Shown: in pieces, positions 1,684 to 42,362 of the stretch
Position numbering within the stretch: the stretch's first letter is position 1
Layout: every line of letters begins with the position of its first letter
From: a virus
Taxonomy: Duplodnaviria > Caudoviricetes
Virus record (IMG/VR): IMGVR_UViG_3300030202_001144
Coordinates: 1-62,896 of that record
Direction: 5' to 3' (one strand)
Length of the DNA: 62,896 nucleotides
Translations under genes and position numbers: made by a program
Notes under the pieces: model-generated
Databases searched by the model: none
The model's input: only the letters and a program-made list of their open reading frames with translations
What the model was told of the DNA's origin: nothing

Positions 1684-1684
1684 A

Positions 1685-2071: not shown

Positions 2072-2072
2072 A

Positions 2073-2231
2073 CTATTTTTTCTTTTTACCTCCTCCAAAT
2101 TTACCTGGACCTCCAGCTTTAGTGCATCTTACACCCCATCCTGAAGCATAAGCACTAGGCCAAACTTTAAATTTTCTTTTTGCAGCAGCTTTACAAGCTG
2201 AACTAATTTTAGCATATAATGGTGAACTCAT
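2073..2231 (-). CDS. 52-aa basic protein, DUF5872-like N-terminal motif (not in ORF track)
   Basis: Manual translation MSSPLYAKISSACKAAAKRKFKVWPSAYASGWGVRCTKAGGPGKFGGGKKKK; fills the gap between neighbours. Confidence 0.75.
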   Translation of the reverse strand: MSSPLYAKISSACKAAAKRKFKVWPSAYASGWGVRCTKAGGPGKFGGGKKKK

Positions 2232-2236
2232 AATTA

Positions 2237-2383: not shown

Positions 2384-2384
2384 T

Positions 2385-2933: not shown

Positions 2934-2935
2934 AA

Positions 2936-3334: not shown

Positions 3335-3335
3335 A

Positions 3336-3623
3336 TTATCTACCTCTTTGTTGCAACTCGTATAAGCGTTCGTCAATTTTCTCTATAGTTTCTTTTATTT
3401 CTTCTACATCTTCTTGCGTATCCATAATTGTTTGACGAATTAACTCATCTTTTAAATCATATTCTACCCTATCAATAACTGGTTTGGGTAATTCTTTAGC
3501 AAGAGCTATATCAGCCTGCATTACAAAGTATAAGCTAGCTAATGACACTACACCTCCTATTATTATTCCTATTGTTTTAAGATCAAGTGTTATTTTTGTA
3601 TCTTCACCTATTTGATTTGCCAT
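3336..3623 (-). CDS. Single-TM membrane protein with C-terminal coiled coil
   Basis: IGIIIGGVVSLASLYFVM TM segment followed by a heptad-like charged tail. Confidence 0.7.
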   Translation of the reverse strand: MANQIGEDTKITLDLKTIGIIIGGVVSLASLYFVMQADIALAKELPKPVIDRVEYDLKDELIRQTIMDTQEDVEEIKETIEKIDERLYELQQRGR

Positions 3624-7800: not shown

Positions 7801-10800
7801 AGACTCACCTGTTATAGGATCAACTGGATTATTAATAACATCAAGTAATAACTTCCAATTGTCATACATAAATTTATCTAAATCAGAACCTTTTTTAAAA
7901 GTTATTGTTCTAACTAATGGGTACAATTTGTCTTGTAAAAGTTTTTGAAAATTATAAAACTGTAGTGTTTCAATATTAGGTGATCTTAATATTTCATTTT
8001 CTACTTGCTTTATAATCATTTCTACAGGGTTTTGATTAACTCTTAAAGCTTCATAAGTTTTAACAATAGAACCAGAACCTAAATCAAAAGCTTCAAAACT
8101 TCTTAATTTTTGTAATTCATCATTTTCCGCCTTAGTCCTACCTTGTATAGCTTCTAATTCTAAACCTCTTTTTAAATCTCTTTTTTGTTGTTCTAATTGT
8201 TTTTTAACTTCAGGATCTTCTTCCGCAGCTATTCTTTTATTTATAGTTGTATCAGGATCATCTAAAGTTTCTAAACTAATAATTCTATCACCTAACGGTA
8301 TAGTTTCTATAGTAATATCATTACCATCTACATCTACAAAACTAAAAACAGGATCACTTAGTAGTTCAATTAATTGATCTTGATCTTCATCAAATTTAAT
8401 TTTTTGTTCTTCTGCAGTTGATTCATCTATTTCACTAGTAGTTCTTTCATCTATTTCACCAGTAAATTTTTGAGTTGTAATACCAGGTTTTTTTAAGGCT
8501 TCCTTTATTTTATTATTTAACTGAGCATTTATCCATGCGTTTAAATCATTGTTCTCTGTTATTGTTTCACCTTTTTTGTTTTTATAACCTTTTTTATCTT
8601 GAGCTTCAAGTCTTTTAGATATTTCAGCTTGACTCATTCCTTTCGCCGCTAAACCATCTTTAAATTGTTCTCTTAATTTTAAAAATTCTTTATTAAAGTT
8701 TCTTATGTGTTTTAATAGTTCTACCTGTGTTTCAGCTATTAAATCCTCTATTAAAATATTAGGTAGATTAGAATATTGAGTTTGTATTTTATAACCTATA
8801 ACATCAGCATAATCTTGTAATATATCATACACAACACTATCAATACCTGTTTGTGTAGAAAATACTTCAGGACTATAATAATCGTTTATATTATCTTTAA
8901 ATTCCTCAGGGTTTAATCTTTTTGTAACTTTTAAAGAAAACTTAGTATCTATTTCATCTGCTAGTTGACTTTCTTCTTCGTCAGTTGTTGCTGCTGTTGC
9001 GGCTGCTGTAACAGCTGCTCTACGCTGTGCTCTTTTTCTATTTTTTTCAACTATAGTTTCAGCTACTTTTTTAAAACGATCAGCTTGTTCTTGCTGTCTT
9101 ATTTTTTTCTTTTTAAGTTTTTCTTTAGTAGTTGTTTCAAGTTCTTTTTCTTCTTGCTGTAATCCCTTTTTTTCTTCTTTTGTTAAACCTTGTTTTTCAC
9201 CTAGCTTTTTAAAAGCTCTATTATATTTTAACATACCTGATTTAACACTTTTATTATAATCACGCAGCATGTTAAATACATCTTTACCACTACCTAAATC
9301 TATATCTCTTGCACCAACAAATTGCATAGCTCTTCTCCAAGAGTTTCTAATTTTTTGTATTGCGTCTTCATCATAACTTAAGTTTATATCAGGATCACCT
9401 ATAGCTTCTGAATATAAAGTTAAAGCTTCTTCCCAACTATTACTTAGTGATTCATCTATTAGTCTATCACCTTCTTGTTTACTTATAGCTTTGTTTTGAA
9501 CACTTCTTCTAACTTTTTCTTTTACATCCTCAGCTCTTTGTAAATAACCTAATAATCTTCTTTTAAATGAACTAGGTAATACACTTTGATCTGCATCATC
9601 TTTTAACTGTAAATCTAGCTTAGCTAATTCATTAAATAAAGCTTTACCAAGCAGTCTACCTGCTTCCGGATCATTTTTAACTACTTCGTTTATTAACGCA
9701 TGTAAAAATTCATGTTGAGCTGTTTGAGTCATTCGTCTACCAGAAGCATCAGGTTTACCAGCATTGTATTTAAATTCAAGAGCATATTTAGTTCCGTCTT
9801 GATCAAACATAGCTCCAAATGAACCTTTTTTAAGGAATCTATTTTTTAAATATCTTTCAAACTCTTGATTTGTCATTTCTCTACCAAGACTTTTACTATA
9901 TCTATTTACAGTGCTTTTTAAATATTCTAAAGCTTGTTGTTCATTGTCAAAAGCTTTATATATAGTATTACCTGCTACACCAGCTCTAGCAGCTGCCATT
10001 ATACCTTTTCTTTGTGACTTAGTTAACTCGTTATAATAAGTATTATTTATTCTGTCTTTTAACGCTTGAATTTGATCATCATAACCAGTAAAACCTTTAG
10101 GAGCTTTTTTCTTATCGTTTTCTAGTTGATTTAACTGTTGTATGTCAGATAAAATAGTCGAAGCTGCTTTAGCTGACATATTTGGTGGAACATGATTAAT
10201 AGTATTTTTATATTGATCAACTTCACCTAATAAATTATCTACTTCTTGCTGTGTATATATACCTTGTTCTATTTGACTAGCTAACAATGATTTTAAATCA
10301 GACTCATTGTAAGCCATAAATGCTAAAGAATTAAATCTATCAACAGCGTCCCAACCCATAAACTCTCTTAACTGCTGATTTGCAGAAGAAGTTATTGTTC
10401 CTGCGCCTGGCATAAATGCACCAGCTGTAAATGATAAAGCAGAAGTGTGTATAAAATCTTGTAAAGTATAATCTTCTTTGACTATTTGTTGACCAGCTTG
10501 TCTATTAATATCAGCACCAATTTGAGTTGTTTCTCCAAACTGTTGTATATTTTCTTGAAAAAGCTCTTTCCAACCTTCTCTTTGTATCATATCAGCTGTT
10601 CTGATAATATCTTTTCCAGTTTGTTTTAAACCTTCTCTAGTTCCAAATCTTTGACCTTGTGTTTTCCAAAAATCACTCCAACCTTTCCAACCACCTTTCA
10701 TGTATCTTTGAACAGCTACTTCAATGTTTTCTTTAACAGGTTTACCAAATAATAAGTTTTGAGCTTTTGTTTGGGGACTTATAGGTGCTGTAATAGCATA

Positions 10801-12900
10801 CCAAAAACCTGTTTGTGTTGATGCGCTAGCAGCAAGTTCTCTAACTTCATCTTCAGGTAAACCAGCTGCTCTTCCAGCCATCATAGTATCTTCATAACCT
10901 CTTACAAAACCTATAGTAGACTGTGCTATAATAGCATCCGCAACTACACTTTTAACCGGTAATGATTTTAAAAATCTTTTTGTGTTACCTAATACACCCA
11001 TACCTTTAGTGTAACCTCCTACTGCAGCTTTAAACTTACCAATACCTCTTGTTAATGCTACTTGTCCAAATAAGTCTCCAATAACTCTAGATGACTCAAA
11101 AGCTAAACCATAACCCGATGCGCTACTACCAGCAGAACCATCTCTTCTTACTCTTGAAATAATTTCAGATCTTTGCTGAGGTGTTAATAAAGCTGTTGCT
11201 TCAATTTTATTAGTAGTATCATAAATTCTATTAGTATTATCTACTAAATATTCAACACCATAATCTTCTAAAAATAATTTTCTACCTCTTTTATAACCAT
11301 ACCTTAAATTATCACCTCTTTCAAAATTGTTAATTAAAGTATTACGCCTCCAATTTTCTGCAATTTCATCAGTATATTCGCCAGGCAAACTTTCCATTGT
11401 ATACGTGGCAAGTGGAGTTGTAAAGTCATGCCAAAAACCTATCCAAGCATTACTACCTATTTTATTTAAAAACTCTCCTGTAGTTATATCACCTTTAGAT
11501 TCAATAACTTTTTGATATTCTTTTTCTATTTTTAGTTGATTTTTTTCTAATTGATTATAAACATAAGGTGTTTCTACTTTCATCCAGTCTTTTATAAAAG
11601 AAGGATTAAAGTTTCCTGGAGATATATTAAACTGTATTCCTTCAGTATCAGCATCTCTACCTGGATTATTTCTTTCCCAAATTAATTTTTGTTGTTTTAA
11701 ATCTCTAGTTATCTGCTCGTTTAAATATAAGTTTAAACCTTGTAATTTTAAAAGCTCTCTATGCTTCATTGCATTTTCACTATCATCACCTTTTATTTTA
11801 CCAAGCATTTCTTGTATGTATCTTTTATGCTGCCTGTTAACTAAAAACCCATTAAAATCTTTTATATTAAAATTAGAATCCATTTTTAAAGATTCAGCAC
11901 CAAAAAAATCTTCTACAAAACCATCGTCTTCTGAAAACTCTTCAAATATGTAAGGTTGATCTAATTTTTCTAAATCAATAACTGATGCTATTTGATCAGG
12001 AGTTCTTAAAACAAATCTATCAACTTTTCTTCTAGCTTGTCTTTTTAGTCTTTCTACATCAGTCCAATATGGCATATCATTTTGCCACATTATTTCAAAA
12101 ACTTCATGGTTTTTTAAATATCTATTTTCTTTTTCTATAAATATCTTAGATGTACCTTTTATAATATCATCATAATTGTGAACCCATGAAGTGTAACCTG
12201 GATACATCCCAAACATTAAATCTTGTTTTTCTATTAAACCTTCGTCTAAAGCTTTTTGAATACCAGGTTGTTTTAAAAATGCAGCAATATCTCTTTGTCC
12301 GTAAACTTGATCTTCAGGTTTTCCAAGTGATCCGTATCCTTCTGAATCAAACCCTGCAATTTGAAAATTATCTCTTTCAGGATCTAACCCACCTACTTTA
12401 TTATAAACTTTTTTAATTTGATTTAGTGTAGTTTCATCAAGTTTATCTCCTTCATTCCATTTTTTAGGTTTAGAAAGCTTGGTAGCATATGATCTACCTG
12501 TAGCAACGTCAAGAATTTTTATATCATCACCAAACACTGTATTACCAATATCTCCAAACATTCTATCAAATTCTTCAACATTACCAATTAAAGGCTCGGG
12601 ACCTTGTGGAATACCAAAATTAGTATGAAAATCTTCTTTAAAAAGTCTTTCAGTCATTTTGTCTAAATCAAAATCTTGATATTTAGGAACTGGCATAAAA
12701 GGATCTTCAGGAAGAATACGCATCTTACCACCTCCAAACATACTTTCATCCATTGGTTGCATACTTATTTCTTCTTCTGTAGCCTCAACTGCTTTTGCAT
12801 TTGGATTTGACGCCAACCATAAGAATTTTTCTGTCTCTGGCCAGTTTGAAACATCTACCCTTTGACCGTCAGGCAATTGATAGATAAATAATTCTTCCAT
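4900..12900 (-). CDS. Giant internal virion/ejection protein (2666 aa) with HExxH zincin-like motif
   Basis: Size, position after the tail genes, hydrophobic helices, HEFLH at ~9700-9714. Confidence 0.65.
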   Translation of the reverse strand: MEELFIYQLPDGQRVDVSNWPETEKFLWLASNPNAKAVEATEEEISMQPMDESMFGGGKMRILPEDPFMPVPKYQDFDLDKMTERLFKEDFHTNFGIPQGPEPLIGNVEEFDRMFGDIGNTVFGDDIKILDVATGRSYATKLSKPKKWNEGDKLDETTLNQIKKVYNKVGGLDPERDNFQIAGFDSEGYGSLGKPEDQVYGQRDIAAFLKQPGIQKALDEGLIEKQDLMFGMYPGYTSWVHNYDDIIKGTSKIFIEKENRYLKNHEVFEIMWQNDMPYWTDVERLKRQARRKVDRFVLRTPDQIASVIDLEKLDQPYIFEEFSEDDGFVEDFFGAESLKMDSNFNIKDFNGFLVNRQHKRYIQEMLGKIKGDDSENAMKHRELLKLQGLNLYLNEQITRDLKQQKLIWERNNPGRDADTEGIQFNISPGNFNPSFIKDWMKVETPYVYNQLEKNQLKIEKEYQKVIESKGDITTGEFLNKIGSNAWIGFWHDFTTPLATYTMESLPGEYTDEIAENWRRNTLINNFERGDNLRYGYKRGRKLFLEDYGVEYLVDNTNRIYDTTNKIEATALLTPQQRSEIISRVRRDGSAGSSASGYGLAFESSRVIGDLFGQVALTRGIGKFKAAVGGYTKGMGVLGNTKRFLKSLPVKSVVADAIIAQSTIGFVRGYEDTMMAGRAAGLPEDEVRELAASASTQTGFWYAITAPISPQTKAQNLLFGKPVKENIEVAVQRYMKGGWKGWSDFWKTQGQRFGTREGLKQTGKDIIRTADMIQREGWKELFQENIQQFGETTQIGADINRQAGQQIVKEDYTLQDFIHTSALSFTAGAFMPGAGTITSSANQQLREFMGWDAVDRFNSLAFMAYNESDLKSLLASQIEQGIYTQQEVDNLLGEVDQYKNTINHVPPNMSAKAASTILSDIQQLNQLENDKKKAPKGFTGYDDQIQALKDRINNTYYNELTKSQRKGIMAAARAGVAGNTIYKAFDNEQQALEYLKSTVNRYSKSLGREMTNQEFERYLKNRFLKKGSFGAMFDQDGTKYALEFKYNAGKPDASGRRMTQTAQHEFLHALINEVVKNDPEAGRLLGKALFNELAKLDLQLKDDADQSVLPSSFKRRLLGYLQRAEDVKEKVRRSVQNKAISKQEGDRLIDESLSNSWEEALTLYSEAIGDPDINLSYDEDAIQKIRNSWRRAMQFVGARDIDLGSGKDVFNMLRDYNKSVKSGMLKYNRAFKKLGEKQGLTKEEKKGLQQEEKELETTTKEKLKKKKIRQQEQADRFKKVAETIVEKNRKRAQRRAAVTAAATAATTDEEESQLADEIDTKFSLKVTKRLNPEEFKDNINDYYSPEVFSTQTGIDSVVYDILQDYADVIGYKIQTQYSNLPNILIEDLIAETQVELLKHIRNFNKEFLKLREQFKDGLAAKGMSQAEISKRLEAQDKKGYKNKKGETITENNDLNAWINAQLNNKIKEALKKPGITTQKFTGEIDERTTSEIDESTAEEQKIKFDEDQDQLIELLSDPVFSFVDVDGNDITIETIPLGDRIISLETLDDPDTTINKRIAAEEDPEVKKQLEQQKRDLKRGLELEAIQGRTKAENDELQKLRSFEAFDLGSGSIVKTYEALRVNQNPVEMIIKQVENEILRSPNIETLQFYNFQKLLQDKLYPLVRTITFKKGSDLDKFMYDNWKLLLDVINNPVDPITGESTYSAKMMPEVLKEFNDEGQRIKKKKVTRALFLQTYYGKAKATEIINKYSKSPAAELKQLGPVEITEKTGREIGLTGVFDRRTSLIRLITNVAVLQQARKSLRNQSFLNQIGNKNPNLYNELKNDNIMDAVLNDMASGKSSSVRFSINNDLSPFFKGRTALQQILMSEVMAKAKINTQVKSKRSEVKNSRKFFVPNLGKMKDQTVAFYLIDKFSKGYNNFEFRNIENSQGKLTKQLLEEGDVKFSSDFNYDEYSTDLNKGLNQIVAENENISPKKQFDNVEARAKGKKGKYRNTWWMGPADQDYKGLLWMLARASGAKGDQQIDWLYENLLDPYEMGNLNLRKARISLLNSWMTLLNKYPGIKGRLEEKVPGYGEFTYGDAVRIYLWNKGRMKIPGLSKKNEFELSNIIRKDKTLRTFAGEVSLLSKQPNGYIEPEADWSYSTLMIDISKKLVNIDRKKYLAPWIQKVDLVFTPEMYNKLEAVYGKPYREALENMIYSMKTGKNQNKGEQDKATSGFMGWLNGSVGVTMFLNARSAMLQLISTINYINTSDNNVLKFGVAMANVPQMSKDFLYLWNSDYMKDRRQGMLTSLQEQEIQDIIRNTKEKDFKTVINNLISWTLKKGFILTRIFDSIAISAGGATFYRNRIGTYLNEGFSKAEAEEKAYFDWFKLTEEAQQSGDPSKISMNQASQMGRLMLAFQNTPLQYGRIIKRGAVDLIKRRGTGLKDPSQFKIGKGDFNNASKVLYYSTLQYAVFAFIQNALFAKFFDEEEQEWPSGKYDKQESRFWNGWLDSMLRGAGLPGAYLAWAKNIGLKGYQLYNDPKNMYKSGEFALALTDGLTPIAIKARKIFQAYNTLVWNKKENDWLVEQHGLFSLKNPYMIQSAAAVIEGFTNIPTSRIYNKLTNVSNAFNQEYSYFLRLMFLLGYSTWNLGLEDGSSGRRGRASELDFGPNIEFDNDLRFAPKIKF

Positions 12901-17150: not shown

Positions 17151-17179
17151 TATAATCACTTATTTATTTAATATTTTAC
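17151..17179 (-). promoter_or_regulatory. Class 2 promoter GTAAA-N15-GTGATTATA
   Basis: One of six copies with identical spacing; ends 4 nt before ATG 17146. Confidence 0.7.
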
Positions 17180-20100
17180 TATGATGGCCAGCCAGTTGTC
17201 TTGTACCACGATGTAGTGTGGAAAGGTGGACTAGTATTACTAACAGCTTGAATATTTTGAGGACTTGGTGGTGGAACTTGCAATACAGTGTCATACACTA
17301 AAGATAATCTTGCATTAGCACCACAAGTACTTAAGCTTGTCCATGTTATCTTATTATTTATCCAAGTACATTCACTGTAATCAAATGGACCATCACCAAC
17401 GTTTCCAGAATCACCTGGAACCACCGAATTGTTTTGTTGCAACTGTGTAGGATTAAAAGCACTTAATTGACCTATAACATGATATTGTACACCTGCTGTA
17501 CTGTGATTAATTGCTACTGGACCAGTGAAAGCTCTGTTTCCATCACCTTTAGCAGGAGCATCCATTCCAGTAGTATCTTGTGTATTATAACCACCAAAAC
17601 TAGCATTTAAAATAAACGTTGTACTAGTTTGACTATATGTTTTAGCGTATATATAAACATCATTACTAGTCCAGTTAGCAATTTCACCAACCCATGTTGG
17701 AAGAACAGGAGTTGAAGTAGCTGTTGGACACGTAGCCGCCATACCAGTACCGGTTGGTGGAGTTTGCCAGTGATTAAGAGGATTTATATAAAACGGACTT
17801 GAAGGAACTGTAGAAGCAGTATAAGAACTTGCAACAACATTGCTATAAGTTGTAGCTGTAGGCGTAAACTGTATAGCTAGTATACTTGAAGCCCCTGTTC
17901 CATTTTGATCAGTAAGTTGAATAGTAACTTCATGTAGATTAGGTGCAAAGAAATCACCTTGTAAAGTTCCTGGTTGTCCACTTACATTTGTTTTTCTTTC
18001 TAACCATATACCATAAAAATTATCTGGACTATTACCAGTACAAGTTGTTTGGTTTTCTTGACCTTGAGCTTTTATAAAATAATAAGTTGCTATGTCAGTA
18101 GAAGATGTAGGAGCTGTTGTATTAGTTCCTGTTATATAACTATACCATACTCCTGAACCATTCTGCCATCTTGCAGATTGTATAGTCCACTGCAGATCTC
18201 TCGTTCTGTCACATGTATTACAACTACCATTAAATCCTTTTACTAAACCTATACCATTAAACGCATTACCTGTAGCTTTTAATATTGTTGATTGAGTTGG
18301 GCCTGGTTGAGGATTAGTAACTAAATCTATAACTGGTAAATCATTTAATAAAGTTCTTACAAATGTTTGATTTGAAACAGTTCCATCTGCTTGTGTAAAT
18401 TGTATATTAAATTGATATTTTTCTAAAAATTCAAAGTTTAATAAAGCAGCATGAGGTTCTACTAATTGTATTTTCCAAGATCCTCCACCTGCAGCTACAA
18501 TTTGAAACTCACTATTTCTATTAACACTAGTATCTATTTGATCACTTAAATCAAAAGAATAAACAGATGATAAAATAGCTGTACTTGTAACATCATTACC
18601 TTGAGGAGTTAATGCAAAAAACGGAGTGGTTAAATCAGCTCCTGCACAATCACCTTCGTTATGTAACCAAGTAAAAGTACTTAAGCCAATTATTGCAGTA
18701 CCAGAACTTACAATAGCTGTATTAATGTCTGATATTAAACCACTTGTTGATGTTTCGTAAAATAAATCTAAATTAGAAACAGTAGGTGAAGTTTCATAAA
18801 CCGACAAAGACATTGAGTCTGGATATTCCGCGCCACCAGCTTGAGTATTAAAAGTAGCTTGTTGTACTCCAATAGCTTTTTGTACATTTACTTTAGCTAT
18901 AAAAGGTTTTGATTCTACATCAAATATAGCGTTATTATTTATTTCACCGTTAGTAGTAGGTGCATCATCAAAAGCTACACCAGGAAAAACATCTTTAATA
19001 GCACCTATTAATTCAACTGAATCAGGCGTTGTATTAGGGCCGTATTGTTGATTGTTACCAGCAGCCAAAACAGAATTATTAGTTACTCTACCAAACCAAG
19101 TTAATTCACTATTAAACTGAACATCTTGATTACTTATCTCTTTTAATTGTCTAGGTACTTTATTTATATTGTCATGTATTAGTGTTACAAAAGCAGTACT
19201 ACCTATTTCTGTTGTATTACCTTGTATTGGATAACCACTAACTATTCCAGGTAAATATACATTGTAAAACTCTTGTTGTTGTTGTTTTACTACTACTCTA
19301 TATGAATAAAAACCATTTACATTTATATCAAATGTATAATTGTTTACAGTAAGAAAAGTTTTAGGTTCTGTTCTAGTGCTAGGATTACTACTAGGATCAG
19401 TGTCGCCTTGGAACATATATGCATCATCTATTTCTTCATTTGTAAAAAATAAATACCTATCAGCTGAGCCTTGCTGATTAAATGATTCAACTTCAACATA
19501 GTCTTGATATTTACCTCTTAAGTATTTACCAGCACCAAACAACTCAGTAGTAGCTGTAACAGTAAGTCCAAAGTTTTCTATTTGGTATCTATATTGAGAA
19601 TTATATAATACTCTTCCTCTTAATTTATAATTAGAAGCAGCAGGTGCACCAGAACTAAATGTAACAACTATTTCATCATTACCACTATCAGTAACAGCAT
19701 ATGTGTTAGAAGCAACTTCTACCCAGCCTTTTCCTTCATTCAACCATAAAGTAAATAAAGTAGTAGCATTTAAATCTTGATAAGATAAATTAAGAAATGT
19801 ATAAGCAGCTTGATTAGCTACTGTATTAAGCTCTTGTGTGCTCCAATTAAAAAAAGCTGGAAAAGGACTAGACATTGGTCCTTCTACAGTATACAAACTA
19901 GGTTGTGCATATAAACCACTAGTGTCACCATTAATATTTATAATAGAGTCAAATCTTATATTTAAATTTTCTCCTGTCCAACCTTGAACCTGTGATGCGT
20001 TTTCAACAGGTCTATAAGTTGTAAAATAATTTGATCCTTCAGTTGGTTCACCACCTGCAATTAACACATTATCTTTTGAAGATAATATTACATCAGTTTG

Positions 20101-21921
20101 CCTACCCCATTTGTCTGCTAAAATTATACCTACTTGATAATTTCTGTTTTGTTTTACTGAATGTTGAGGATATTCCTCTGCTATTTGAGCAACTCTATCA
20201 CTTAAACCAACCGCATAGTTTAAACCTAACGGAGCGTTATATCCTTGTGTAAAGTTAGCATACATAACTCTATTACCAGCTATAGCTTGAGCTAAAGCTT
20301 TTACAGGAACCTTATCATAAACTCTTGTTGTTTCGTCTGTAGGTAAAGTTTTAAAAGGTACTGTTGATTGATATGTATATTGATATATGTTAGTATTATT
20401 TAGATTAGTTATAAATTGTGGATTAACTTCAATGCTTTGAAGAATTTTATAAGCTAATGCATCAGACTCTTTATATATAATATCTATTTCGTTTATTTTA
20501 TAATCATCTATTATATTTAATGAAGGCAGCTCTATGTTTAATATTATGTTGTTAATATTGTTTTGCATAAACTTTACAATAGTAGATCTCATTGTATCGT
20601 CTTCATCTTCATTTAAAAACTCACCTTCATGTTGAGGTATAAAACACTCCTGTGTAAATGGAGCTATAATAGAATATTCACCATCATCAAATCTAAACCT
20701 ATAACTAAACCTTATAAATTTATCACGTAATAATTCTGGATCACCTTGCCAACCTTTAAAACCAGCTTCTTGCACAACTCTTACAGCATATCCTTGTTTA
20801 GTACCTGTGTTTGAAACTACACTTGGATTACCTGCGTTATTATTGTCTTGTAAATAAAAATATTTATTAACATCAGACACCCACCATTTTCCTTGAGTGT
20901 TTAAATTATTAAAGTCATTATTGTTAGCAGTTGCTGATCTTTCACCAGAAGGAGTACCATCCCATCCTGATGAATTATTTGTAGCAGCAGCCGTACTAGT
21001 CCAAAAATCTGTAGATTTTAAACTTGCTGGTGCTGTTGTTTGTGTTTCAGTTATAAGATTATTATAATCAGCTTCTGTAGCTAATCTATAACCGTATGGA
21101 GCTAGATTTCTCGTATCAGTTACAGCATGCCTATTGTAAAGCTTTTGATATATAACGCCATTAGATAATTGATTTTCATAATAACACCAGCAACCAGTGC
21201 TAAGTTGATCAAAATTATCCCAATCAGCAAAAGATTCAGCTTGTGGTATTAAATCGCCATTTCTATATCTACTTACATCTAAATTATCAGTAGCCCAAAT
21301 AGTAGAACCTATAGTAATACTAGGTAGGTTTTCAGCATCAGACATTGTACTAGGTTTTAAAGCGCTAACACTTCTTAAATCTATTAAAGCAGGAGCAATA
21401 TAAGGAGAAAACTTAGCAACACTTACGCTTTCTTCACTATTATAATAATTAGGGTTTTGAGTAGCTGTAACTACATTTATAACCCTAGGTTGATTTCTAT
21501 TATCTGTAAAAAACAATAAAGACTCTAACAGGTTTATACCATGCATTGTATTAGCTGTAGAAAAATTTAAATATGAACCACTTGCTAAAACAGTTGCAAC
21601 AGTAGTATTAGAACTTGGCTGCCATCTATTTATAGAACAATTAGCTGTAGAAGGCGCTAAAGTACTACCTGTATAATCTGTTAAAAAGAAATAAACATAA
21701 CCACTAGCGTCATCAACATATGTACCTATACACTGTTGACCTGAAGCACTGTTTATTATAATTTCATTACCTAAAACAGCTTCTAGCGCGCCAACATCTT
21801 GGTCTTCAGATCTAGAGACCGCAATATTCTTTGCGTCTCTGTATTCGTTATTTGGTACTAGTCTATCATCTAAGTCTTTATTCATTTTAGACTTGATGAA
21901 GCTGTTTTTATTTTCTGCCAT
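17179..21921 (-). CDS. Tail stabilisation protein, N-terminal part, with inserted FISUMP domain
   Basis: KMNKDLDDRLVPNNEYRDA, LLFFTDNRNQPR, RFSYRFRFDDGEYS, GNRVMYANF motifs; FISUMP domain at 20767-21321. Confidence 0.7.
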   Translation of the reverse strand: MAENKNSFIKSKMNKDLDDRLVPNNEYRDAKNIAVSRSEDQDVGALEAVLGNEIIINSASGQQCIGTYVDDASGYVYFFLTDYTGSTLAPSTANCSINRWQPSSNTTVATVLASGSYLNFSTANTMHGINLLESLLFFTDNRNQPRVINVVTATQNPNYYNSEESVSVAKFSPYIAPALIDLRSVSALKPSTMSDAENLPSITIGSTIWATDNLDVSRYRNGDLIPQAESFADWDNFDQLSTGCWCYYENQLSNGVIYQKLYNRHAVTDTRNLAPYGYRLATEADYNNLITETQTTAPASLKSTDFWTSTAAATNNSSGWDGTPSGERSATANNNDFNNLNTQGKWWVSDVNKYFYLQDNNNAGNPSVVSNTGTKQGYAVRVVQEAGFKGWQGDPELLRDKFIRFSYRFRFDDGEYSIIAPFTQECFIPQHEGEFLNEDEDDTMRSTIVKFMQNNINNIILNIELPSLNIIDDYKINEIDIIYKESDALAYKILQSIEVNPQFITNLNNTNIYQYTYQSTVPFKTLPTDETTRVYDKVPVKALAQAIAGNRVMYANFTQGYNAPLGLNYAVGLSDRVAQIAEEYPQHSVKQNRNYQVGIILADKWGRQTDVILSSKDNVLIAGGEPTEGSNYFTTYRPVENASQVQGWTGENLNIRFDSIININGDTSGLYAQPSLYTVEGPMSSPFPAFFNWSTQELNTVANQAAYTFLNLSYQDLNATTLFTLWLNEGKGWVEVASNTYAVTDSGNDEIVVTFSSGAPAASNYKLRGRVLYNSQYRYQIENFGLTVTATTELFGAGKYLRGKYQDYVEVESFNQQGSADRYLFFTNEEIDDAYMFQGDTDPSSNPSTRTEPKTFLTVNNYTFDINVNGFYSYRVVVKQQQQEFYNVYLPGIVSGYPIQGNTTEIGSTAFVTLIHDNINKVPRQLKEISNQDVQFNSELTWFGRVTNNSVLAAGNNQQYGPNTTPDSVELIGAIKDVFPGVAFDDAPTTNGEINNNAIFDVESKPFIAKVNVQKAIGVQQATFNTQAGGAEYPDSMSLSVYETSPTVSNLDLFYETSTSGLISDINTAIVSSGTAIIGLSTFTWLHNEGDCAGADLTTPFFALTPQGNDVTSTAILSSVYSFDLSDQIDTSVNRNSEFQIVAAGGGSWKIQLVEPHAALLNFEFLEKYQFNIQFTQADGTVSNQTFVRTLLNDLPVIDLVTNPQPGPTQSTILKATGNAFNGIGLVKGFNGSCNTCDRTRDLQWTIQSARWQNGSGVWYSYITGTNTTAPTSSTDIATYYFIKAQGQENQTTCTGNSPDNFYGIWLERKTNVSGQPGTLQGDFFAPNLHEVTIQLTDQNGTGASSILAIQFTPTATTYSNVVASSYTASTVPSSPFYINPLNHWQTPPTGTGMAATCPTATSTPVLPTWVGEIANWTSNDVYIYAKTYSQTSTTFILNASFGGYNTQDTTGMDAPAKGDGNRAFTGPVAINHSTAGVQYHVIGQLSAFNPTQLQQNNSVVPGDSGNVGDGPFDYSECTWINNKITWTSLSTCGANARLSLVYDTVLQVPPPSPQNIQAVSNTSPPFHTTSWYKTTGWPS

Positions 21922-30299: not shown

Positions 30300-32510
30300 C
30301 TATTTTATTATTTTTGAAATATTTCCTTTATTACTATATTTTTTAAAACCTAATGGTTTTGGTGTTAAAGTTCTAGTAAATATGGGTTTATACATATTTT
30401 TATTACAACCCATTATTGCTAAACCACTACTAATAGAAGCATCGTGTTTTGTTCGATTATTTATATCAAACTTAGCCCAGTCTTCTAATGTTTTTTGAAA
30501 ATACATATCACCATATTTTAAACCTAAATTACCAATGTAAGTTTCTATATATGATTCTATAGCAGCGGCATGCGCTTGTTTAATATCTTCACTTGAGTTA
30601 GGTATTCCACCTATTTCTCTTTCTGTTACTGAAAGTTTCATAAAAAGTTTATCAGGTCTGTTCATGCTAAAACCTCTATAACCTCTTCTTTTAAAATGAT
30701 ACAGCAATCTTGGCTTATTGTTTTCTGCTAATATTGGCATACCATAAAAAATACAAGCCATCAAAACATCTTCAAAAAATATTTCAGCTGTTTGTGGTCT
30801 TGATATATATTCTAAAAAAAACATATTTGGAGGTACGTTTTCCATAGAAAATTTAGTAAGTCCGTGTAACGAACCGTTTGATCCTCTAGAATCTACTGTT
30901 CCAGATATGTCATAAGGGTCACATCCAAAACATCCTGTATGTTCGTTTCCTGGATATTTAACACCATTTTTAATTATAACATTGTTTTGTAAATGTTTAG
31001 GTGGAACCCATGAAACATTAAATCTACCGTTTTCATTTGGCATAAAAATAACTCTAGTATCTTTAACACCATTCTCCCACATAAAAGATCCTTTAGTTAC
31101 TATTTTGTAGCTATTTGTATCTTCGTTAAAATCTATTTGTTCGTATATCTTTACTAGATTAAATAAAGAAGCTTTAGATTCATCTCTAAAAGCATGTTGA
31201 GTTGTTCTTGGAAACTGTCTGTAAAACTCATTTAAAGCGTTTTGATCTTGCTTTAATCCTTCAACTTCATTTTCCCAATATTTAATAACTCCAATATCAA
31301 TTTTATCTCCTCTAGGTCCAATGATTGGTTTTCTAGGTGTGTCGAACACAGGTAATCCATAAGAATCAATGTATCCTTCGTAATTCCATTCCATAGGAAT
31401 GAACAAACTATAGAGTCCCGAACGTGTTTGTCCATTTGCGTTTCTTTGTGTAACATCTGAATCATCATATAATTTTTTAAAATTATCACCACCTTTGTCT
31501 AACGAGTTGCTTGTTGAACCCATCATACATTTTCCAATAATTCTACTACCTAATCTTAGTGTGGTTTTTGTAACCCTCCAGTTGTTGAGGATGTTGTTCG
31601 GCTTCTCCCACTTCCCTGATTCATCATGTACAAGGAGTTTGAGTTTCTCCCCATCGTAGGAGTTATCACCTGTGTTCTTCCAGTCGATGGTGGTATCAAG
31701 TCCTTGTAACTCCTCCACGGTTTCATTGGTTTCGAGTTTACGTCTGGTAAACTTGGAGGCGGGTACACGATAGGCAAGCTCGGTTTTTGGACGATCCATT
31801 CCGTCCTGTATTGGTTTGAAAAAGAAGGGATAATTAACCGAAATTGGAACCACTTTGTCTGTGAACATCTTCTTTGCATCAGGACCGGACTTTGATAATA
31901 TACCATACCTGGAGTCACTTGATATGGTTGCCAGGTTGACCACCTCTCCAGAGGCCATGAAAGAAAACCCGGAACGTCTGTTCTTAAGGTAGCACATCCC
32001 GTAGCATCGTTGATCTGCTTTACAAGCTTCCCAGAAAATAAAGAATAATCTATTTGCTTCTCGAAAGTCTGGTGCCCCGACGTCAATTTTAGACCACTGC
32101 AGGTACATATAATGAGTGCCAGTAATATAAGTAGCTTCATCTTTATTATAAAACCAAAAACCTTCTTCTCTACGAGTAAATTCTTGATCAATATAATCAT
32201 ACCATTTTTCTTTAAAATCTTCTGGATATTGTTTCCAATCAAAAACAGTTTTAATTTTTGATAAAGATTTAGGATACTCTGTTTTATCCCATTTATTATC
32301 TTCAAAACTGTGTATGTTTTTTTGTTTAGGTAAAGCTATTTTAAGGTTTTGTATTTCATATATCTCACCTATTTGACCGCTTTTACTTATTATAACAATA
32401 TCGTGCTCTTTATTATAACCATATTCCCATTTTTTCTTTTTATTGTTTTTACTAACAATATGTGGCTTAATATGATCTTTTAATATTTTATATAAAGTTT
32501 GCGAATACAT
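30300..32510 (-). CDS. terL: Terminase large subunit
   Basis: KNRRSGFS (Walker A-like), LLVHDESGK (Walker B), GST coupling motif, GCDPYD nuclease motif. Confidence 0.92.
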   Translation of the reverse strand: MYSQTLYKILKDHIKPHIVSKNNKKKKWEYGYNKEHDIVIISKSGQIGEIYEIQNLKIALPKQKNIHSFEDNKWDKTEYPKSLSKIKTVFDWKQYPEDFKEKWYDYIDQEFTRREEGFWFYNKDEATYITGTHYMYLQWSKIDVGAPDFREANRLFFIFWEACKADQRCYGMCYLKNRRSGFSFMASGEVVNLATISSDSRYGILSKSGPDAKKMFTDKVVPISVNYPFFFKPIQDGMDRPKTELAYRVPASKFTRRKLETNETVEELQGLDTTIDWKNTGDNSYDGEKLKLLVHDESGKWEKPNNILNNWRVTKTTLRLGSRIIGKCMMGSTSNSLDKGGDNFKKLYDDSDVTQRNANGQTRSGLYSLFIPMEWNYEGYIDSYGLPVFDTPRKPIIGPRGDKIDIGVIKYWENEVEGLKQDQNALNEFYRQFPRTTQHAFRDESKASLFNLVKIYEQIDFNEDTNSYKIVTKGSFMWENGVKDTRVIFMPNENGRFNVSWVPPKHLQNNVIIKNGVKYPGNEHTGCFGCDPYDISGTVDSRGSNGSLHGLTKFSMENVPPNMFFLEYISRPQTAEIFFEDVLMACIFYGMPILAENNKPRLLYHFKRRGYRGFSMNRPDKLFMKLSVTEREIGGIPNSSEDIKQAHAAAIESYIETYIGNLGLKYGDMYFQKTLEDWAKFDINNRTKHDASISSGLAIMGCNKNMYKPIFTRTLTPKPLGFKKYSNKGNISKIIK
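31556..32140 (-). CDS. Putative overprinted lipoprotein-like gene in the +1 frame of terL (194 aa)
   Basis: MKLLILLALIICTC signal/lipobox-like start; frame stop-free for 249 codons; GC rise confined to the overlap. Confidence 0.55.
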   Translation of the reverse strand: MKLLILLALIICTCSGLKLTSGHQTFEKQIDYSLFSGKLVKQINDATGCATLRTDVPGFLSWPLERWSTWQPYQVTPGMVYYQSPVLMQRRCSQTKWFQFRLIIPSFSNQYRTEWIVQKPSLPIVYPPPSLPDVNSKPMKPWRSYKDLIPPSTGRTQVITPTMGRNSNSLYMMNQGSGRSRTTSSTTGGLQKPH

Positions 32511-32788
32511 TACTTAGATCTTCCTTCTGCAAAACCCTTGAAGGTTTTTTCTTTTTTAACTTCTTCTTTTGGCTTATCTTCTAGCATATTTTTTTCTTCT
32601 TCAATACGGTTAAGTATTTCAAAAGCATCAAATATAGCTAGTTTTTTTGTAGCTGCTGCATTTTTAAGTCTGTCTGCAGATATATCATCATCACTATCAA
32701 CAATAGGTTCTTTTGCAACTTTTATTAATTCATCTACTGCTACTTGCCCAGCTTGGATTATATTCTTCTTCGTTTCCTTTATTTTCAT
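32510..32788 (-). CDS. Putative terminase small subunit
   Basis: Small helical protein abutting terL (positional inference). Confidence 0.45.
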   Translation of the reverse strand: MKIKETKKNIIQAGQVAVDELIKVAKEPIVDSDDDISADRLKNAAATKKLAIFDAFEILNRIEEEKNMLEDKPKEEVKKEKTFKGFAEGRSK

Positions 32789-33338
32789 ATTTAATTACAA
32801 TATCATTTGATTTCATACAATAAAGACGTTCTTCGTCTATAACAAACTCCCATTCACCGTATGGAGTATAACCTATTAAGTCTCCTGGATATATTTCTTT
32901 GCTTTCTAAGAAACTATTACCATATTTTAGTATACCTATTAAGTCTTGTTCTTTTTTGCTGCTTAGATTTGATTTGTTTTTTATAGGTTTTACAAAACAT
33001 CTATCATTAAAAGTATTCCAAACATCATTTTGTTTATATAAATAAACTTGATCTGGTTGGCAAAAATATAAATTATCTTTGAACCAAGATCTACTTTTCT
33101 TTTGTTTACCTTTAGTATCATAAAAAACTCTAAAAACGTTTTGATGAACTATAACAATATCTCCCACATTTATTCCGGTATAATAGGCTAAAGGGCATGC
33201 TTTAACAACAGCATGTCTATTAACAAATTTAAAGCTTTCTATTTTAGAATTTACTATTAATTTTTTATCCTCTACCTGAACTTCATTGTTATATGTTTCA
33301 CCTAGGGGTTCTACGATAAAATCATATAAGCTTTTCAT
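32730..33338 (-). CDS. GroES-like tandem-domain protein
   Basis: Two FIVEP/FVKP...GD.V/I repeats resembling the Cpn10 fold. Confidence 0.45.
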   Translation of the reverse strand: MKSLYDFIVEPLGETYNNEVQVEDKKLIVNSKIESFKFVNRHAVVKACPLAYYTGINVGDIVIVHQNVFRVFYDTKGKQKKSRSWFKDNLYFCQPDQVYLYKQNDVWNTFNDRCFVKPIKNKSNLSSKKEQDLIGILKYGNSFLESKEIYPGDLIGYTPYGEWEFVIDEERLYCMKSNDIVIKYENKGNEEEYNPSWASSSR

Positions 33339-34441: not shown

Positions 34442-34900
34442 TTATTTTTTGTTAAATATATTACTTGCCTTTTCTGTCGTACGTCCGCCGAAATAGGCTA
34501 AAACAACGGCCATCATGACCTTCTCAAAAGTATCGTTCCATAATTCATTTATATGAAATGGTATAGTTTCTACACTATCTAATATTCCAGCAAATGAAAA
34601 AACTATTATACACCATACTAAAACTAAAGGTCGTACGTTTTTTGACATCCATGAATCACTCATAGAATCTGCTTGCCATCTTGATGTTATGGCTTCTATT
34701 TCTTTATTTTGTTGTTCAAAAATTATTTGTTGTAATTTTACTTTATCTTCAGCAGGAGCATCTGATTTAGTAATAGCTTCAATAGCTTCTTTTGGAGATG
34801 TAACACCTTGTAATACATTACCTAATGTAGGGTTTATTACAGATGCAGCGCCAAACAATAATTGACCAACAGTTGTATCTTTAAATTTCTTTTTACTCAT
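34442..34900 (-). CDS. Holin (GTA 3TM holin family)
   Basis: RWQAD..SDSWMSKNVRP and YFGGRT.EK motifs; TM segments. Confidence 0.8.
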   Translation of the reverse strand: MSKKKFKDTTVGQLLFGAASVINPTLGNVLQGVTSPKEAIEAITKSDAPAEDKVKLQQIIFEQQNKEIEAITSRWQADSMSDSWMSKNVRPLVLVWCIIVFSFAGILDSVETIPFHINELWNDTFEKVMMAVVLAYFGGRTTEKASNIFNKK

Positions 34901-40118: not shown

Positions 40119-40565
40119 TTATCTATTTTTATCTATATTAACATTATATATAGAAGTTCTTAAAACTTTATTTGTATACGTATCTTTTCTCATTATAATA
40201 TTTCTTCTTTCGCTTGTAGGTATATCTTCATAACCTAACATTATTTTATAAATTTTATTTATAAGTTGTTTTGCTTTAAACGATATTTTATAAATATTAT
40301 ATTTTTGAGTCGTTCTATTTCTATGACGCCAAACAACTATCCAGTTGTTCTTTATTAATTTGTTCCATCTTTTTTTATCCCAACTATAAGAGTATGTACC
40401 CATTTTAAAATCTTTTATGGTAAACATATCTACACAATCTAAATAAATTAACAATTCTAATTCAGCATCATTTAAGCCGTTGTTCTTACAAGCCCACTTA
40501 CGTATTATACGATAATGTTTCAGCAAATTCAGATCTTTTAAATCTGATGCTTCTAGCCTTTTCAT
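40119..40565 (-). CDS. Basic hypothetical protein, possible winged-helix
   Basis: GLNDAELELLIYL...YKISFKAKQL resembles MarR-type wHTH. Confidence 0.45.
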   Translation of the reverse strand: MKRLEASDLKDLNLLKHYRIIRKWACKNNGLNDAELELLIYLDCVDMFTIKDFKMGTYSYSWDKKRWNKLIKNNWIVVWRHRNRTTQKYNIYKISFKAKQLINKIYKIMLGYEDIPTSERRNIIMRKDTYTNKVLRTSIYNVNIDKNR

Positions 40566-40825
40566 AAAACAACGACCACATCTTGTGATTTTATAACATG
40601 ATAAGTATTATCTTCTACTTCTATTTTATGTCCTGCGTGTCTATCAAAATAAATAGTATCATTTTCATTTAATCCTTTTATTTCATCACCTACAGCTAAA
40701 ATAGTAGCTTTAGTATATCTAATATCATCTTTATGTTTTTCACCTAAAAGTAAACCACCTTTTGTTTTTGTGGTTCCTTCTTTGGTTTTTTCTATTATTA
40801 AATTTCTACCTATTGCTTTCATCAA
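40562..40825 (-). CDS. groS: Co-chaperonin GroES
   Basis: TKGGLLL mobile loop, AVGD, small Cpn10 size. Confidence 0.85.
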   Translation of the reverse strand: MMKAIGRNLIIEKTKEGTTKTKGGLLLGEKHKDDIRYTKATILAVGDEIKGLNENDTIYFDRHAGHKIEVEDNTYHVIKSQDVVVVL

Positions 40826-42362
40826 CTCTAATATTATTAATTACACAATCTGTAGATAAAATTGTAGTAGCTACTGAAGCAGCGTTTTTTAACGCGCTTT
40901 TAGTTACAAGCAAAGGATCAATTACACCTTCATCTATCATGTTTGCTTTAGCTTTATTTATTACATTTATACCTACACCATCTTCAGCAGGTATAACTAT
41001 TTCATCTATACCAGCATTATTTAATATAACTTTATAAGGAGACATAATAGATTCTAATAAAATTTGTTCACCTTGATTATCTCCTTTTACATTAAAAGAA
41101 GCATTTAACAAAGCAACTCCTCCTCCAGGAACTATACCTTCTTTTATAGCAGCTTTAGTAGCACATATAGCGTCTTCAGCTCTATCTAATTTTTCTTTTA
41201 GTTCAACTTCTGAATTAGCACCTATTTTTACAACCGCAATTTTTGCAGATAATCTAGCTAATCTTTTTTCTAAACTTATTATTTTATCAGGTATTTTACA
41301 ACTTTTTAATTCCTTTTTGATTTCTTCTATTATACTTAATGTTTCCGGTTTTGTTTCACCTATTTGTATAATAGTTTCATCTTCTGTAGTAACACTTTTT
41401 AAACATGAACCTAAATAGTCTATATCTATTAAATCCATATCGTCACCTAAATTTTCATTTATAACAACAGCATTTGTAAGTAATGCAATATCATCTAATA
41501 TTTGCTTTCTATTTATACCTAATACTGGAGCTTCTACTACATTTATTTTTATATTGCCTTTTGTTTTGTTCATTGCTAATGCAGTTAAAACATCAGGACT
41601 TAAATCACCTATTATTAATAATTGTTTTTTATTTTTTATAACATGTTCTAATATAGATTGTATTTGCCTTATAGTAGAAACTTCAGAATCAATAATTAAA
41701 ACTAATGGATTATCTAATTCTGCAGACTTGTTTTCTTTGTTTGTTATAAAATGAGGTGATGTTATACCTTTAGGATATTGTGCACCATCAATTACTTCAG
41801 TTTTAGTTTCACCCGAAACTGATACTTCCATCATTACTACGCCTGTTTTATCTACTGATCTAAAAGCATTAGCTATTAATGTACCTAATTTTTTATCGTT
41901 ATTAGTAGATATAGTTGCAACATGATCAAGCATTTCATCTTTAACAGGTATTGAAATATTATCTAAATATTTTACAACTTTATCAACACAGCTGTTTACA
42001 CCTTCTTTTATTATTCTTACGTTTTTTTTATCTAACACTTTATAAGCATTATCTAAAATAGCGTGAGCTAATACGGTTGCTGTAGTGGTTCCGTCGCCTG
42101 CTTCCTGTACTGTTTTTTTAGCAGCTTGTTTTAATAATGTAGCACCCATATTTTCTACTGGGTTTCTCAATATTATGTTTTCTGCTACAGTTACACCATC
42201 TTTAGTAATTATAGGATTACCATTGGAATCTTCTAAAATAACACACTTACCGCTAGCTCCTAAAGTGGAGCTAACAGCTTGTGTAAGTTTTTCAATTCCT
42301 TCAAATACTTTATCTCTAGCCTCGTTACCGAAGTTAAGATTTTTTACTATCATATTTGACAT
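40806..42362 (-). CDS. groL: Chaperonin GroEL
   Basis: ITKDGVTVA, AGDGTTTATVL, GIVPGGG, GVIDP motifs. Confidence 0.95.
   Translation of the reverse strand: MSNMIVKNLNFGNEARDKVFEGIEKLTQAVSSTLGASGKCVILEDSNGNPIITKDGVTVAENIILRNPVENMGATLLKQAAKKTVQEAGDGTTTATVLAHAILDNAYKVLDKKNVRIIKEGVNSCVDKVVKYLDNISIPVKDEMLDHVATISTNNDKKLGTLIANAFRSVDKTGVVMMEVSVSGETKTEVIDGAQYPKGITSPHFITNKENKSAELDNPLVLIIDSEVSTIRQIQSILEHVIKNKKQLLIIGDLSPDVLTALAMNKTKGNIKINVVEAPVLGINRKQILDDIALLTNAVVINENLGDDMDLIDIDYLGSCLKSVTTEDETIIQIGETKPETLSIIEEIKKELKSCKIPDKIISLEKRLARLSAKIAVVKIGANSEVELKEKLDRAEDAICATKAAIKEGIVPGGGVALLNASFNVKGDNQGEQILLESIMSPYKVILNNAGIDEIVIPAEDGVGINVINKAKANMIDEGVIDPLLVTKSALKNAASVATTILSTDCVINNIRVDESNR

Follow-up and report, generated by a model that had tools for sequence, protein, structure and literature searches.

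An open reading frame within terL

The DNA analysed here (the window) is a stretch of 62,896 nucleotides, record IMGVR_UViG_3300030202_001144 of IMG/VR, which represents the near-complete genome (62.9 kb; 97%, CheckV) of an uncultured marine flavobacterial phage. Its gene for the terminase large subunit, terL, was assigned by PHROG phrog_6681 (E 5e-165), and on the same strand it holds a second, out-of-frame open reading frame (ORF), called the hidden gene below. A tblastn search with terL matched 87 phage records, the matches being phages of Flavobacterium, Cellulophaga, Tenacibaculum, and Maribacter, with an identity of 63% to the uncultured record MW202828 and of 45% to elemoviruses. Read from a TTG, the hidden ORF spans positions 31556..32305 on the minus strand (249 codons), and the +1 frame is open over 260 codons when measured from stop to stop. 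The rest of this frame carries gaps of at most 82 codons and 37 stops in total, and the +2 frame of terL contains 103 stops, its gaps reaching 32 codons at most. The window has 94 ORFs of 70 aa or more; of those nested in another ORF, the hidden one is the longest, the runner-up being 137 aa. Measured in 200-base windows, GC is 0.42-0.48 at 31500-32099, compared with 0.26 at 32100-32299 and 0.28 at 31100-31299. A first-pass annotation of the window, made by a model from the letters alone, had described a +1 frame free of stops for 249 codons, a GC rise across ~32110-31560, and a shift in terL codon usage; all three are borne out, the last by the third-position GC of the sequences that carry the ORF (see below). 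The coordinates of all features are collected in Table 1.

We then shuffled synonymous codons only inside the ORF region, with 1000 permutations per sequence, a procedure that is conservative because it alters neither the terL protein nor the codon counts of the region itself. For the window, 6.9 +/- 1.6 stops were expected (minimum 2) and none of the 1000 permutations reached zero, the observed number being none. The same test on 59 sequences with the open frame (carriers) gave 1.6-7.7 expected stops, with none observed in any of them; the fraction of permutations without a stop was 0-0.018 in 56/59, with upper values in L037 (0.011), L070 (0.016), L073 (0.017), and L019 (0.018), and it exceeded 0.018 only in L054 (0.04) and the partial sequence L082 (0.12). 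The +1 frame is open beyond chance, given the terL protein and its codon usage.

Occurrence and length classes among relatives

The first sample (n = 83) consisted of 80 relatives of terL found on viral contigs, at 76-91% protein identity, together with two named records and the window. An open +1 stretch of 140 codons or more occupied the same position in 59/83 sequences, and the others had 9-19 stops in the region and no GC rise. A search with a diverged hidden protein yielded another 76 loci, a sample biased toward carriers by the choice of query; their third-position GC was 0.38-0.55 inside the ORF vs 0.18-0.32 outside. All 202 sequences scored comprise 147 with a long hidden gene, 14 with a short one, and 41 with none, and the 163 distinct sequences divide into 114, 11, and 38, respectively. 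The open frame is conserved at the same place across diverged relatives, as an overprinted gene would be.

The long ORFs end at terL aa 258/267, 289, or 317/319 according to lineage, and a short class of 87 codons (L027, L195, L011, L056, and L329) ends at aa 191. Long, 204-, 176-, 112-, and 87-codon forms, together with absence, make up a natural series. The hidden gene is absent from MW202828, from an Elemovirus, from L048, and from lineages at 66-68% terL identity; it probably arose within the clade at 75-92% terL identity, judging from this distribution. The proposal of the first-pass annotation that an overprinted gene with an export-type leader was born inside the terL ATPase domain is supported; more distant terL lineages are without the gene. 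In trees of terL aa 61-325 and of aa 331-736, which disagree with each other, carriers and non-carriers are interleaved and do not form two deep clades.

Marine metagenomes from 13 studies contain the hidden stretch. Searches of Pfam and PHROGs assigned the hidden protein to no family, and an atlas search with it gave no usable match. Database clusters in which the ORF had been predicted hold 84 proteins, mostly of 210-218 aa. Longer entries are chimeras of terL and hidden-frame sequence (P0030, P0039, P0063, P0068, P0072, P0077, and P0084) that switch frame at varied points and in both directions; they look like products of assembly indels in the dual-coding stretch. About 22 of the 47 terL-matching contigs that were found through the i-spanin-like gene described below are cut off within terL, somewhere from aa ~87 to ~340, with the 3' part of terL always retained; Logan contigs across 31400-32600 are only 60-500 bases long. 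The assembly breaks in this dual-coding stretch are probably due to strain diversity or to the polymorphism between presence and absence of the hidden gene.

Codon choice in terL follows the hidden frame

Third-position GC (GC3) over terL aa 101-320 was 0.31-0.66 in carriers vs 0.09-0.25 in non-carriers. The rise begins at terL aa ~101 in every class, which is the site of a conserved ATG and not of the upstream +1 stop, and GC3 drops again after aa 317/319, 289, or 258/267, matching each lineage's own ORF end; in the short class it is raised only up to aa 191. This windowed scan, which the first-pass annotation had suggested, thus found a rise coextensive with the ORF of each lineage, and a recombined terL segment, named there as a possible source of the GC shift, is not the explanation, since the shift is tied to the ORF.

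We compared base choice between 114 distinct carriers and 38 distinct non-carriers. The third base of a terL codon is the middle base of a hidden-frame codon. In the leader (terL aa 124-134), T occupies 0.71 of the third positions in carriers vs 0.54 in non-carriers and A only 0.02 vs 0.29; in the mature parts, T lies at 0.20-0.29 vs 0.39-0.45 and C at 0.22-0.35 vs 0.08, and the share of hydrophobic residues in the hidden frame is 0.20-0.29 vs 0.39-0.45, with FLIMV at 0.20-0.26 vs 0.39-0.42 in the middle and tail. Third-position T gives Leu in the leader, and behind the leader T is replaced by C or G, which yields Pro, Ser, Thr, or Arg. In the flanks (terL aa 40-97 and 330-419), base choice of carriers equals that of non-carriers.

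Single codons show the same preference. Tyr136 is TAC in 57/58 carriers and TAT in 16/21 non-carriers, Leu137 is xTG in 58/58 carriers and TTA in 14/21 non-carriers, and Gln138 is CAG in 55/58 carriers and CAA in 15/21 non-carriers; read in the hidden frame, these codons give Thr-Cys-Ser, and none of the choices serves to avoid a stop. Neighbouring sites are saturated (His133, 33 CAT and 25 CAC; Tyr134, 34/24). Hidden-frame Leu at terL-aligned positions 126, 127, 129, 130, and 132 has a frequency of 0.82-0.96 in carriers vs 0.21-0.58 in non-carriers, and the corresponding values are 0.99 vs 0.24 for Thr136, 0.96 vs 0.21 for Cys137, and 0.91 vs 0.18 for Ser138. The five Leu, Thr-Cys-Ser, and Gly145 are fixed in carriers only, at synonymous sites of terL, as expected from selection on hidden-frame residues. 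Two further invariant Cys of the hidden protein (position 172, Met-Phe site) are uninformative because ATG-T sequences of terL force them. These patterns show that hidden-frame features are maintained through synonymous codon choice in terL, which produces the local GC rise.

A general suppression of synonymous variation in terL, for which the first-pass annotation had recommended a synplot-like scan, did not appear. Synonymous diversity is slightly lowered only over aa 106-150; it is 0.44-0.54 over aa 166-300, compared with 0.30-0.40 in most of terL outside the overlapping part. The mature part is accordingly held in composition and openness and not in sequence.

Could the open frame instead be the by-product of a GC-rich patch, left by recombination, biased repair, or codon tuning, with no second protein at all? 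The GC rise and the open frame always occur together, so that causality could be reversed, the 5' part of terL recombines (as the disagreeing trees indicate), and synonymous diversity in the patch is high. Such a patch cannot explain, however, that T, and not G or C, is fixed in the leader. It would also leave unexplained why Leu, Thr, Cys, and Ser codons are fixed where no stop is at stake, why the patch begins at the ATG and ends at each lineage's own stop, why stops are missing from all 59 carriers when the patch's own codon usage is kept, and why the ORF excludes an unlinked gene 27 kb away (see below); we regard this account as very improbable. A structured RNA or DNA signal for packaging or regulation inside terL has nothing more than the local GC rise in its favour and is the most remote of the explanations weighed here: Rfam gave no match at E up to 1 over 31300-32600, the fold energy had a z-score of -0.81 against 20 shuffles, and terL third positions vary strongly in sequence. 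Taken together, the permutation tests, the conserved position, and the codon footprint make it very likely that the hidden ORF is a real overprinted protein-coding gene.

Start codon, leader, and predicted product

The first-pass annotation had started the gene at ATG 32140, in an A-rich context. An A is indeed present at -3, which favours initiation in Flavobacterium johnsoniae according to the available part of PMC6847099, but this ATG is rarely shared (Table 1), whereas the open frame (59/83) and Cys137, the other features proposed as marks of conservation, are kept. An ATG at 32200, 20 codons upstream (terL codons 104-105, Tyr104-Asp105), is present in ~80/114 distinct carriers, and in 112/114 at least one ATG precedes the hydrophobic run and follows the last +1 stop upstream of it. 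On these counts, ATG 32200 is the probable start. The length of most of the 84 database proteins, 210-218 aa, is consistent with this start. The part of the open frame upstream of it is probably untranslated because the GC3 rise begins only at terL aa ~101 and because relatives have a +1 stop at terL aa 58, 83, 86, 97, or 107.

The predicted product of 214 residues consists, in order, of a Lys-rich start, a Leu-rich run, the motif C-T-C-S-G, a W/Y/P-rich middle, and a basic S/T/R/G-rich tail; the first-pass description of a hydrophobic stretch, this motif, a W/Y/P-rich middle, and an S/T/R-rich tail agrees with the translation. The leader is conserved in charge and hydrophobicity (Lys-rich residues 6-20, Leu-rich run 22-31) and is helical in the model: AlphaFold, run on 59 sequences, predicted one helix at residues 2-41, with a predicted local distance difference test score (pLDDT) of 58-75, and a pLDDT below 50 for the rest. 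The type II signal peptide claimed at first pass is not canonical in the window or the main clade. The lipobox rule [LVI][ASTVI][GAS]C, the consensus as quoted in the accessible part of PMC6139136, is broken at -1 by Thr before the selected Cys and by Ile or Thr before the first Cys. At the selected Cys, terL Tyr136-Leu137 permits only Thr or Ile at this place, and the smaller Thr is found in 0.99 of carriers. In the divergent clade L084-L090, the leader lies 14 codons further upstream and has a canonical lipobox, I-G-S-C, with no Cys at the C-T-C-S-G position; the export signal has thus been preserved through its relocation.

Programmed ribosomal frameshifting, which would fuse the terL N-terminus to +1 sequence without an independent protein, might be considered because some lineages have an open +1 stretch ahead of the ATG, which in the window reaches 46 codons, and because of the chimeric terL/+1 proteins in the protein database. 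Such a fusion is unlikely, since in many lineages the Met is immediately preceded by a +1 stop (aa 107 or 97). The ATG is retained in 112/114 carriers, a conserved leader would serve no purpose in the interior of a fusion, and the chimeras switch at different places and in both directions, like assembly indels; we give frameshifting slightly less weight still than a GC-rich patch.

In the overprinting model, the hidden protein would be translated by internal initiation on the late terL mRNA, in hosts (Flavobacteriia) that do not use Shine-Dalgarno sequences. The leader would take it across the inner membrane and then be cleaved or lipid-modified at the selected Cys, and the mature part would reside in the cell envelope as a disordered chain that is cationic and rich in Pro. 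We hold it highly probable that the hidden ORF is a real gene whose predicted product is an exported, largely disordered, cationic protein.

Table 1. Features of the window discussed in the text
Feature	Position	Strand	Remarks
terL (terminase large subunit)	30300..32510	-	ORF of 736 aa; host frame of the hidden gene
Overprinted (hidden) gene, predicted	31556..32200	-	214 codons + stop from the conserved ATG 32200; +1 frame of the terL ATPase domain
Upstream part of the open +1 frame	32201..32335	-	holds TTG 32305; probably not translated
ATG of the first-pass annotation	32138..32140	-	A at -3; ATG here in only ~13/114 distinct carriers
Predicted leader, residues 1-36	32093..32200	-	Lys-rich start, Leu-rich hydrophobic run, C-T-C-S-G motif at 32093-32107
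Core of the mature part, residues 37-87	31940..32092	-	only mature part retained in 87-codon forms
Disordered, basic Pro/Ser/Thr/Arg-rich middle and tail	31559..31939	-	length varies by lineage; pLDDT <50
i-spanin-like gene	3336..3623	-	95 aa; N-terminal membrane helix and acidic helical part
Endolysin	1219..1776
Holin	34442..34900
Exported thioredoxin	2936..3376	-	signal-peptide-like start; PF00085, 29.6 bits, above cut-off
Basic ORF	1685..2098	-	strongly basic, Lys/Arg/Gly-rich; beside endolysin
Basic ORF	2385..2933	-	strongly basic, Lys/Arg/Gly-rich; beside endolysin
Very large protein	4900..12900	-	2666 aa; no PHROG match
Very large protein	17179..21921	-	1580 aa; virion structural family match at its start only
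Second GroES-like gene	32730..33338	-	phrog_13932; just upstream of terL
GroEL	40562..42362	-	phrog_5725, E 3e-133; GroES-like gene adjoining

The long hidden gene and a stand-alone lipoprotein are mutually exclusive

In the complete non-carrier genome G001, a canonical lipoprotein gene of 145 aa (LP) lies directly upstream of a gene for an inner-membrane-spanin-like (i-spanin-like) protein and overlaps its start by 32 bases; an overlap of ~32 bases was seen in at least 11 loci. A homolog of LP is absent from the window and from the complete carrier genome G004. An extra 143-aa gene beside LP in G001 was set aside, being present in that genome alone and not part of the pattern. LP proteins were aligned as A2 (L170-L194).

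The distribution of the two genes was scored in three samples. Starting from LP, we obtained 25 contigs, and 20 of the 23 searched hold terL: the 18 scorable ones, among them L195 with its 87-codon form, all have 7-16 +1 stops and no GC rise, the other two being without a scorable part. Starting from carriers, a homolog of LP was found in 0/15 contigs, six of which are at least 88% complete. The third sample started from the i-spanin-like gene and was blind to both traits; 60 of its 80 loci were searched for terL, and 13 contigs without terL and 7 without a scorable region were dropped. It contained 35 carriers (GC3 0.36-0.62), of which 21 could be scored across the full 154 codons and 14 across 24-137 codons, and five other contigs. 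A profile search found LP in 0/35 carriers and in the non-carriers G109, G096, and G092; with G099 left out as unscorable, its contig ending 76 bases past the i-spanin-like gene, this amounts to 0/35 carriers vs 3/4 non-carriers (Fisher's p = 4/9139). The pooled set of 69 genomes with both traits scored, from which G099 and the short-form contig G111 were left out, comprises 46 with the long hidden gene and no LP, 23 with LP and no long hidden gene, none with both, and none with neither. Independent contrasts on a FastTree phylogeny of terL aa 345-735 were opposite in 12/12 well-supported pairs (p = 0.0005), as they were in 5/5 among the first 31 genomes. These results show that the long hidden gene and LP are mutually exclusive across phage genomes.

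The two proteins are not homologous by our search: hhalign gave a probability of 6.8%, with only the leaders aligned, and homology was rejected. LP carries a canonical lipobox and a conserved short hairpin segment; its model has a helix at residues 3-18 and a hairpin at 32-46, with nearly all of the chain from residue 54 at pLDDT <50. The mature proteins nevertheless resemble each other in composition, with 8.3% Pro and a net charge of +17 for the hidden protein and 12.5% and +8 for LP, compared with 3.4% and -6.8 for 28 window proteins. LP is found without a hidden gene in lineages at 66-68% terL identity (G011, G018, G019, G022, and G027), and for this reason LP is probably the older solution. 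We consider it reasonably likely that the hidden gene stands in for LP.

A possible role in lysis

Both a holin and an endolysin are encoded in the window. The i-spanin-like protein, for which PHROG and Pfam gave no function, has a periplasmic part with 3.4% Pro, 29% Asp+Glu, and a net charge of -7.6, opposite to that of the hidden protein and LP. The hidden gene would do LP's job, which is most likely that of an outer-membrane partner at the final stage of lysis, i.e., of an outer-membrane-spanin-like (o-spanin-like) protein. The first-pass annotation had proposed an o-spanin-like or superinfection-exclusion lipoprotein, with 3336-3623 as the spanin counterpart; such a function gains indirect support from the exclusion with LP, whose gene encodes a canonical lipoprotein and overlaps the i-spanin-like gene. 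Its unstructured, Pro-rich periplasmic part (Pro 8.3% vs 3.4%; pLDDT <50 from residue 37) is of the o-spanin kind, and its location is not, the gene lying in terL at ~27 kb from the i-spanin-like gene. As to periplasmic Cys, the two further invariant ones of the hidden protein are both forced by terL, and the periplasmic part of the i-spanin-like protein is without Cys. A unimolecular spanin of the T1 gp11 type does not fit either, as the C-terminal 180 residues are hydrophilic and form no second hydrophobic run. We scanned the window for other lipoproteins with the PROSITE lipobox pattern, written as a regular expression; the sole match was a 68-codon in-frame piece of terL (30300-30506), and no credible lipoprotein ORF was found.

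Several observations weigh against an overprinted, LP-replacing spanin subunit. As to the gene itself, the hidden protein was found in no cultured phage among 50,697 INPHARED records, where LP likewise had no match; two RNA libraries hold only short contig pieces, in which strand, start, and level are not shown and which could be DNA carry-over, so that they are not counted here as a sign of expression; most of the hidden ORF shows no fall in synonymous diversity; and the lipobox of the window and the main clade departs from the rule. As to replacement, the short-form contig G111 (87 codons, 77% complete) is without LP, L027 and L195 carry LP together with the 87-codon form, the contrast trees were built from terL alone in mosaic genomes, and PHROG and Pfam searches assigned no function to LP. 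As to lysis, the i-spanin-like protein is ~80% identical (mean column identity, alignment A3) whichever partner is present, that of the window being 77% identical to a non-carrier's and 76% to a carrier's. No homolog of the i-spanin-like gene was detectable in two carriers, G040 (97% complete) and G035 (88%); the endolysin, thioredoxin, and 391-aa genes of the window are likewise missing from G040, and a crude screen of this genome for lipoprotein ORFs gave spurious pattern matches only and no credible candidate. Another canonical lipoprotein lies near the i-spanin-like gene in 8/35 carriers (seven of 112-114 aa and one of 69 aa), and LP itself sits upstream of the i-spanin-like gene, not downstream of it or inside it. 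In the outgroup MW202828, the hidden gene, LP, and the i-spanin-like gene are all absent.

Some of these points would equally suit an exported product with a job outside lysis, such as superinfection exclusion or receptor masking, in which case exclusion with LP would reflect alternative accessory proteins or linkage. The hidden gene was lost or swapped many times and is for that reason dispensable in the lineage, its mature part is fast-evolving and variable in length, G040 and G035 have it without an i-spanin-like gene, the i-spanin-like protein shows no co-variation with the presumed partner, and other lipoproteins lie near the lysis genes of some carriers. On the other hand, terL mRNA is late, whereas known exclusion proteins act early; the overlap of LP with the membrane/coiled-coil gene in at least 11 loci suggests coupled expression; and the hidden protein and LP are charged oppositely to the i-spanin-like part. 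We consider a job outside lysis unlikely, though clearly less so than a GC-rich patch or a frameshift.

An overprinted, exported protein that replaces LP and is likely o-spanin-like is, as a whole, the best explanation of the data, and we assign it a probability of roughly 0.7. Its functional part is held more loosely: that the job of the hidden gene is a spanin function is a tentative suggestion. Equally tentative is the historical version, in which a de novo gene nested in terL took over the job of the older LP, likely as the outer-membrane partner of the i-spanin-like protein. The two solutions would then segregate as alternatives in a recombining marine phage population, and the 87-codon forms that coexist with LP would be intermediates. 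If this is true, an ordinary gene displaced by an overprinted newcomer has been caught in the act, and a spanin subunit is encoded far from its partner gene.

Relation to known systems

A close parallel is lambda Rz1/Rz. Both Rz1 and the hidden gene lie wholly inside another late gene, on the same strand but out of frame. Their products share a Cys-containing export leader at the N-terminus, followed by an unstructured mature part rich in Pro, and genes of this kind are commonly missed by gene callers. The hidden gene differs in that its host is terL and not an i-spanin gene, with the i-spanin-like gene 27 kb away, in that its predicted product is ~5x longer with a non-canonical lipobox, and in that its lysis role is inferred only. 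The part of the spanin survey PMC6139136 available to us lists 182 embedded, 228 overlapped, 118 separated, and 58 unimolecular spanins and gives 91/677 phages as having no spanin found. Some "missing" spanin subunits may hide in unrelated genes.

The hidden gene also resembles the overprinted viral genes treated in the accessible portions of two reviews (PMC8227390 and PMC3494269) and of a single-genome permutation method (PMC6188560): it appears to be young, confined to one clade, disordered, odd in composition, faster-evolving than the old frame, and detectable by codon permutation. In contrast to these, it lies in a tailed double-stranded DNA phage, in the domain of an essential enzyme, with ~214 codons, and its polymorphism of presence and absence is tied to an ordinary gene elsewhere in the genome. 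The open literature searched, which does not cover subscription journals and was partly available as excerpts, yielded no paper on a gene inside terL.

The LP of the sister phages shares with the hidden protein a leader and a mostly disordered, Pro-rich, cationic chain, and the two replace each other in occurrence; it differs in its unrelated sequence, canonical lipobox, hairpin segment, and own gene that overlaps the i-spanin-like gene. T5 Llp and Cor are small superinfection-exclusion lipoproteins expressed early from independent genes. The hidden protein would be like them as a small exported phage lipoprotein, dispensable and variable, whereas it is not encoded by an independent early gene and no observation here ties it to receptor blocking.

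To our knowledge, hardly any long out-of-frame genes have been described within essential enzymes of tailed phages, and gene callers drop such genes. What the present analysis adds is the mutual exclusion with LP, together with the graded set of shortened forms. The natural on/off series shows how overprinting recodes a host gene, with T for a leader and C or G for a soluble tail, and exclusion with a lipoprotein gene beside lysis genes is a functional lead of a kind that is rare for a de novo gene. In practical terms, metagenome assemblies break at this locus and public protein sets include chimeras of terL and the hidden frame.

Other genes of the window and its relatives

The two canonical lipoprotein families noted above near the i-spanin-like gene, one of 112-114 aa and one a 69-aa protein, were located at ~2150-3290 in each of the loci L229, L233, L235, L236, L240, L244, L250, L251, L282, and L289 and at L230:2271-2480; they occur with or without the hidden gene, and Pfam matched neither. 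Between the i-spanin-like gene, which it directly follows, and the endolysin gene, the window encodes an exported thioredoxin that is conserved in G004 and G031; a periplasmic redox protein is unusual in a lysis neighbourhood. Two strongly basic ORFs lie beside the endolysin gene, and because one of them (1685-2098) overlaps the annotated GTG start of the endolysin by ~90 bases, that start may be misplaced. The window further encodes two very large proteins, a GroEL with an adjoining GroES-like gene, and a second GroES-like gene just upstream of terL (Table 1).

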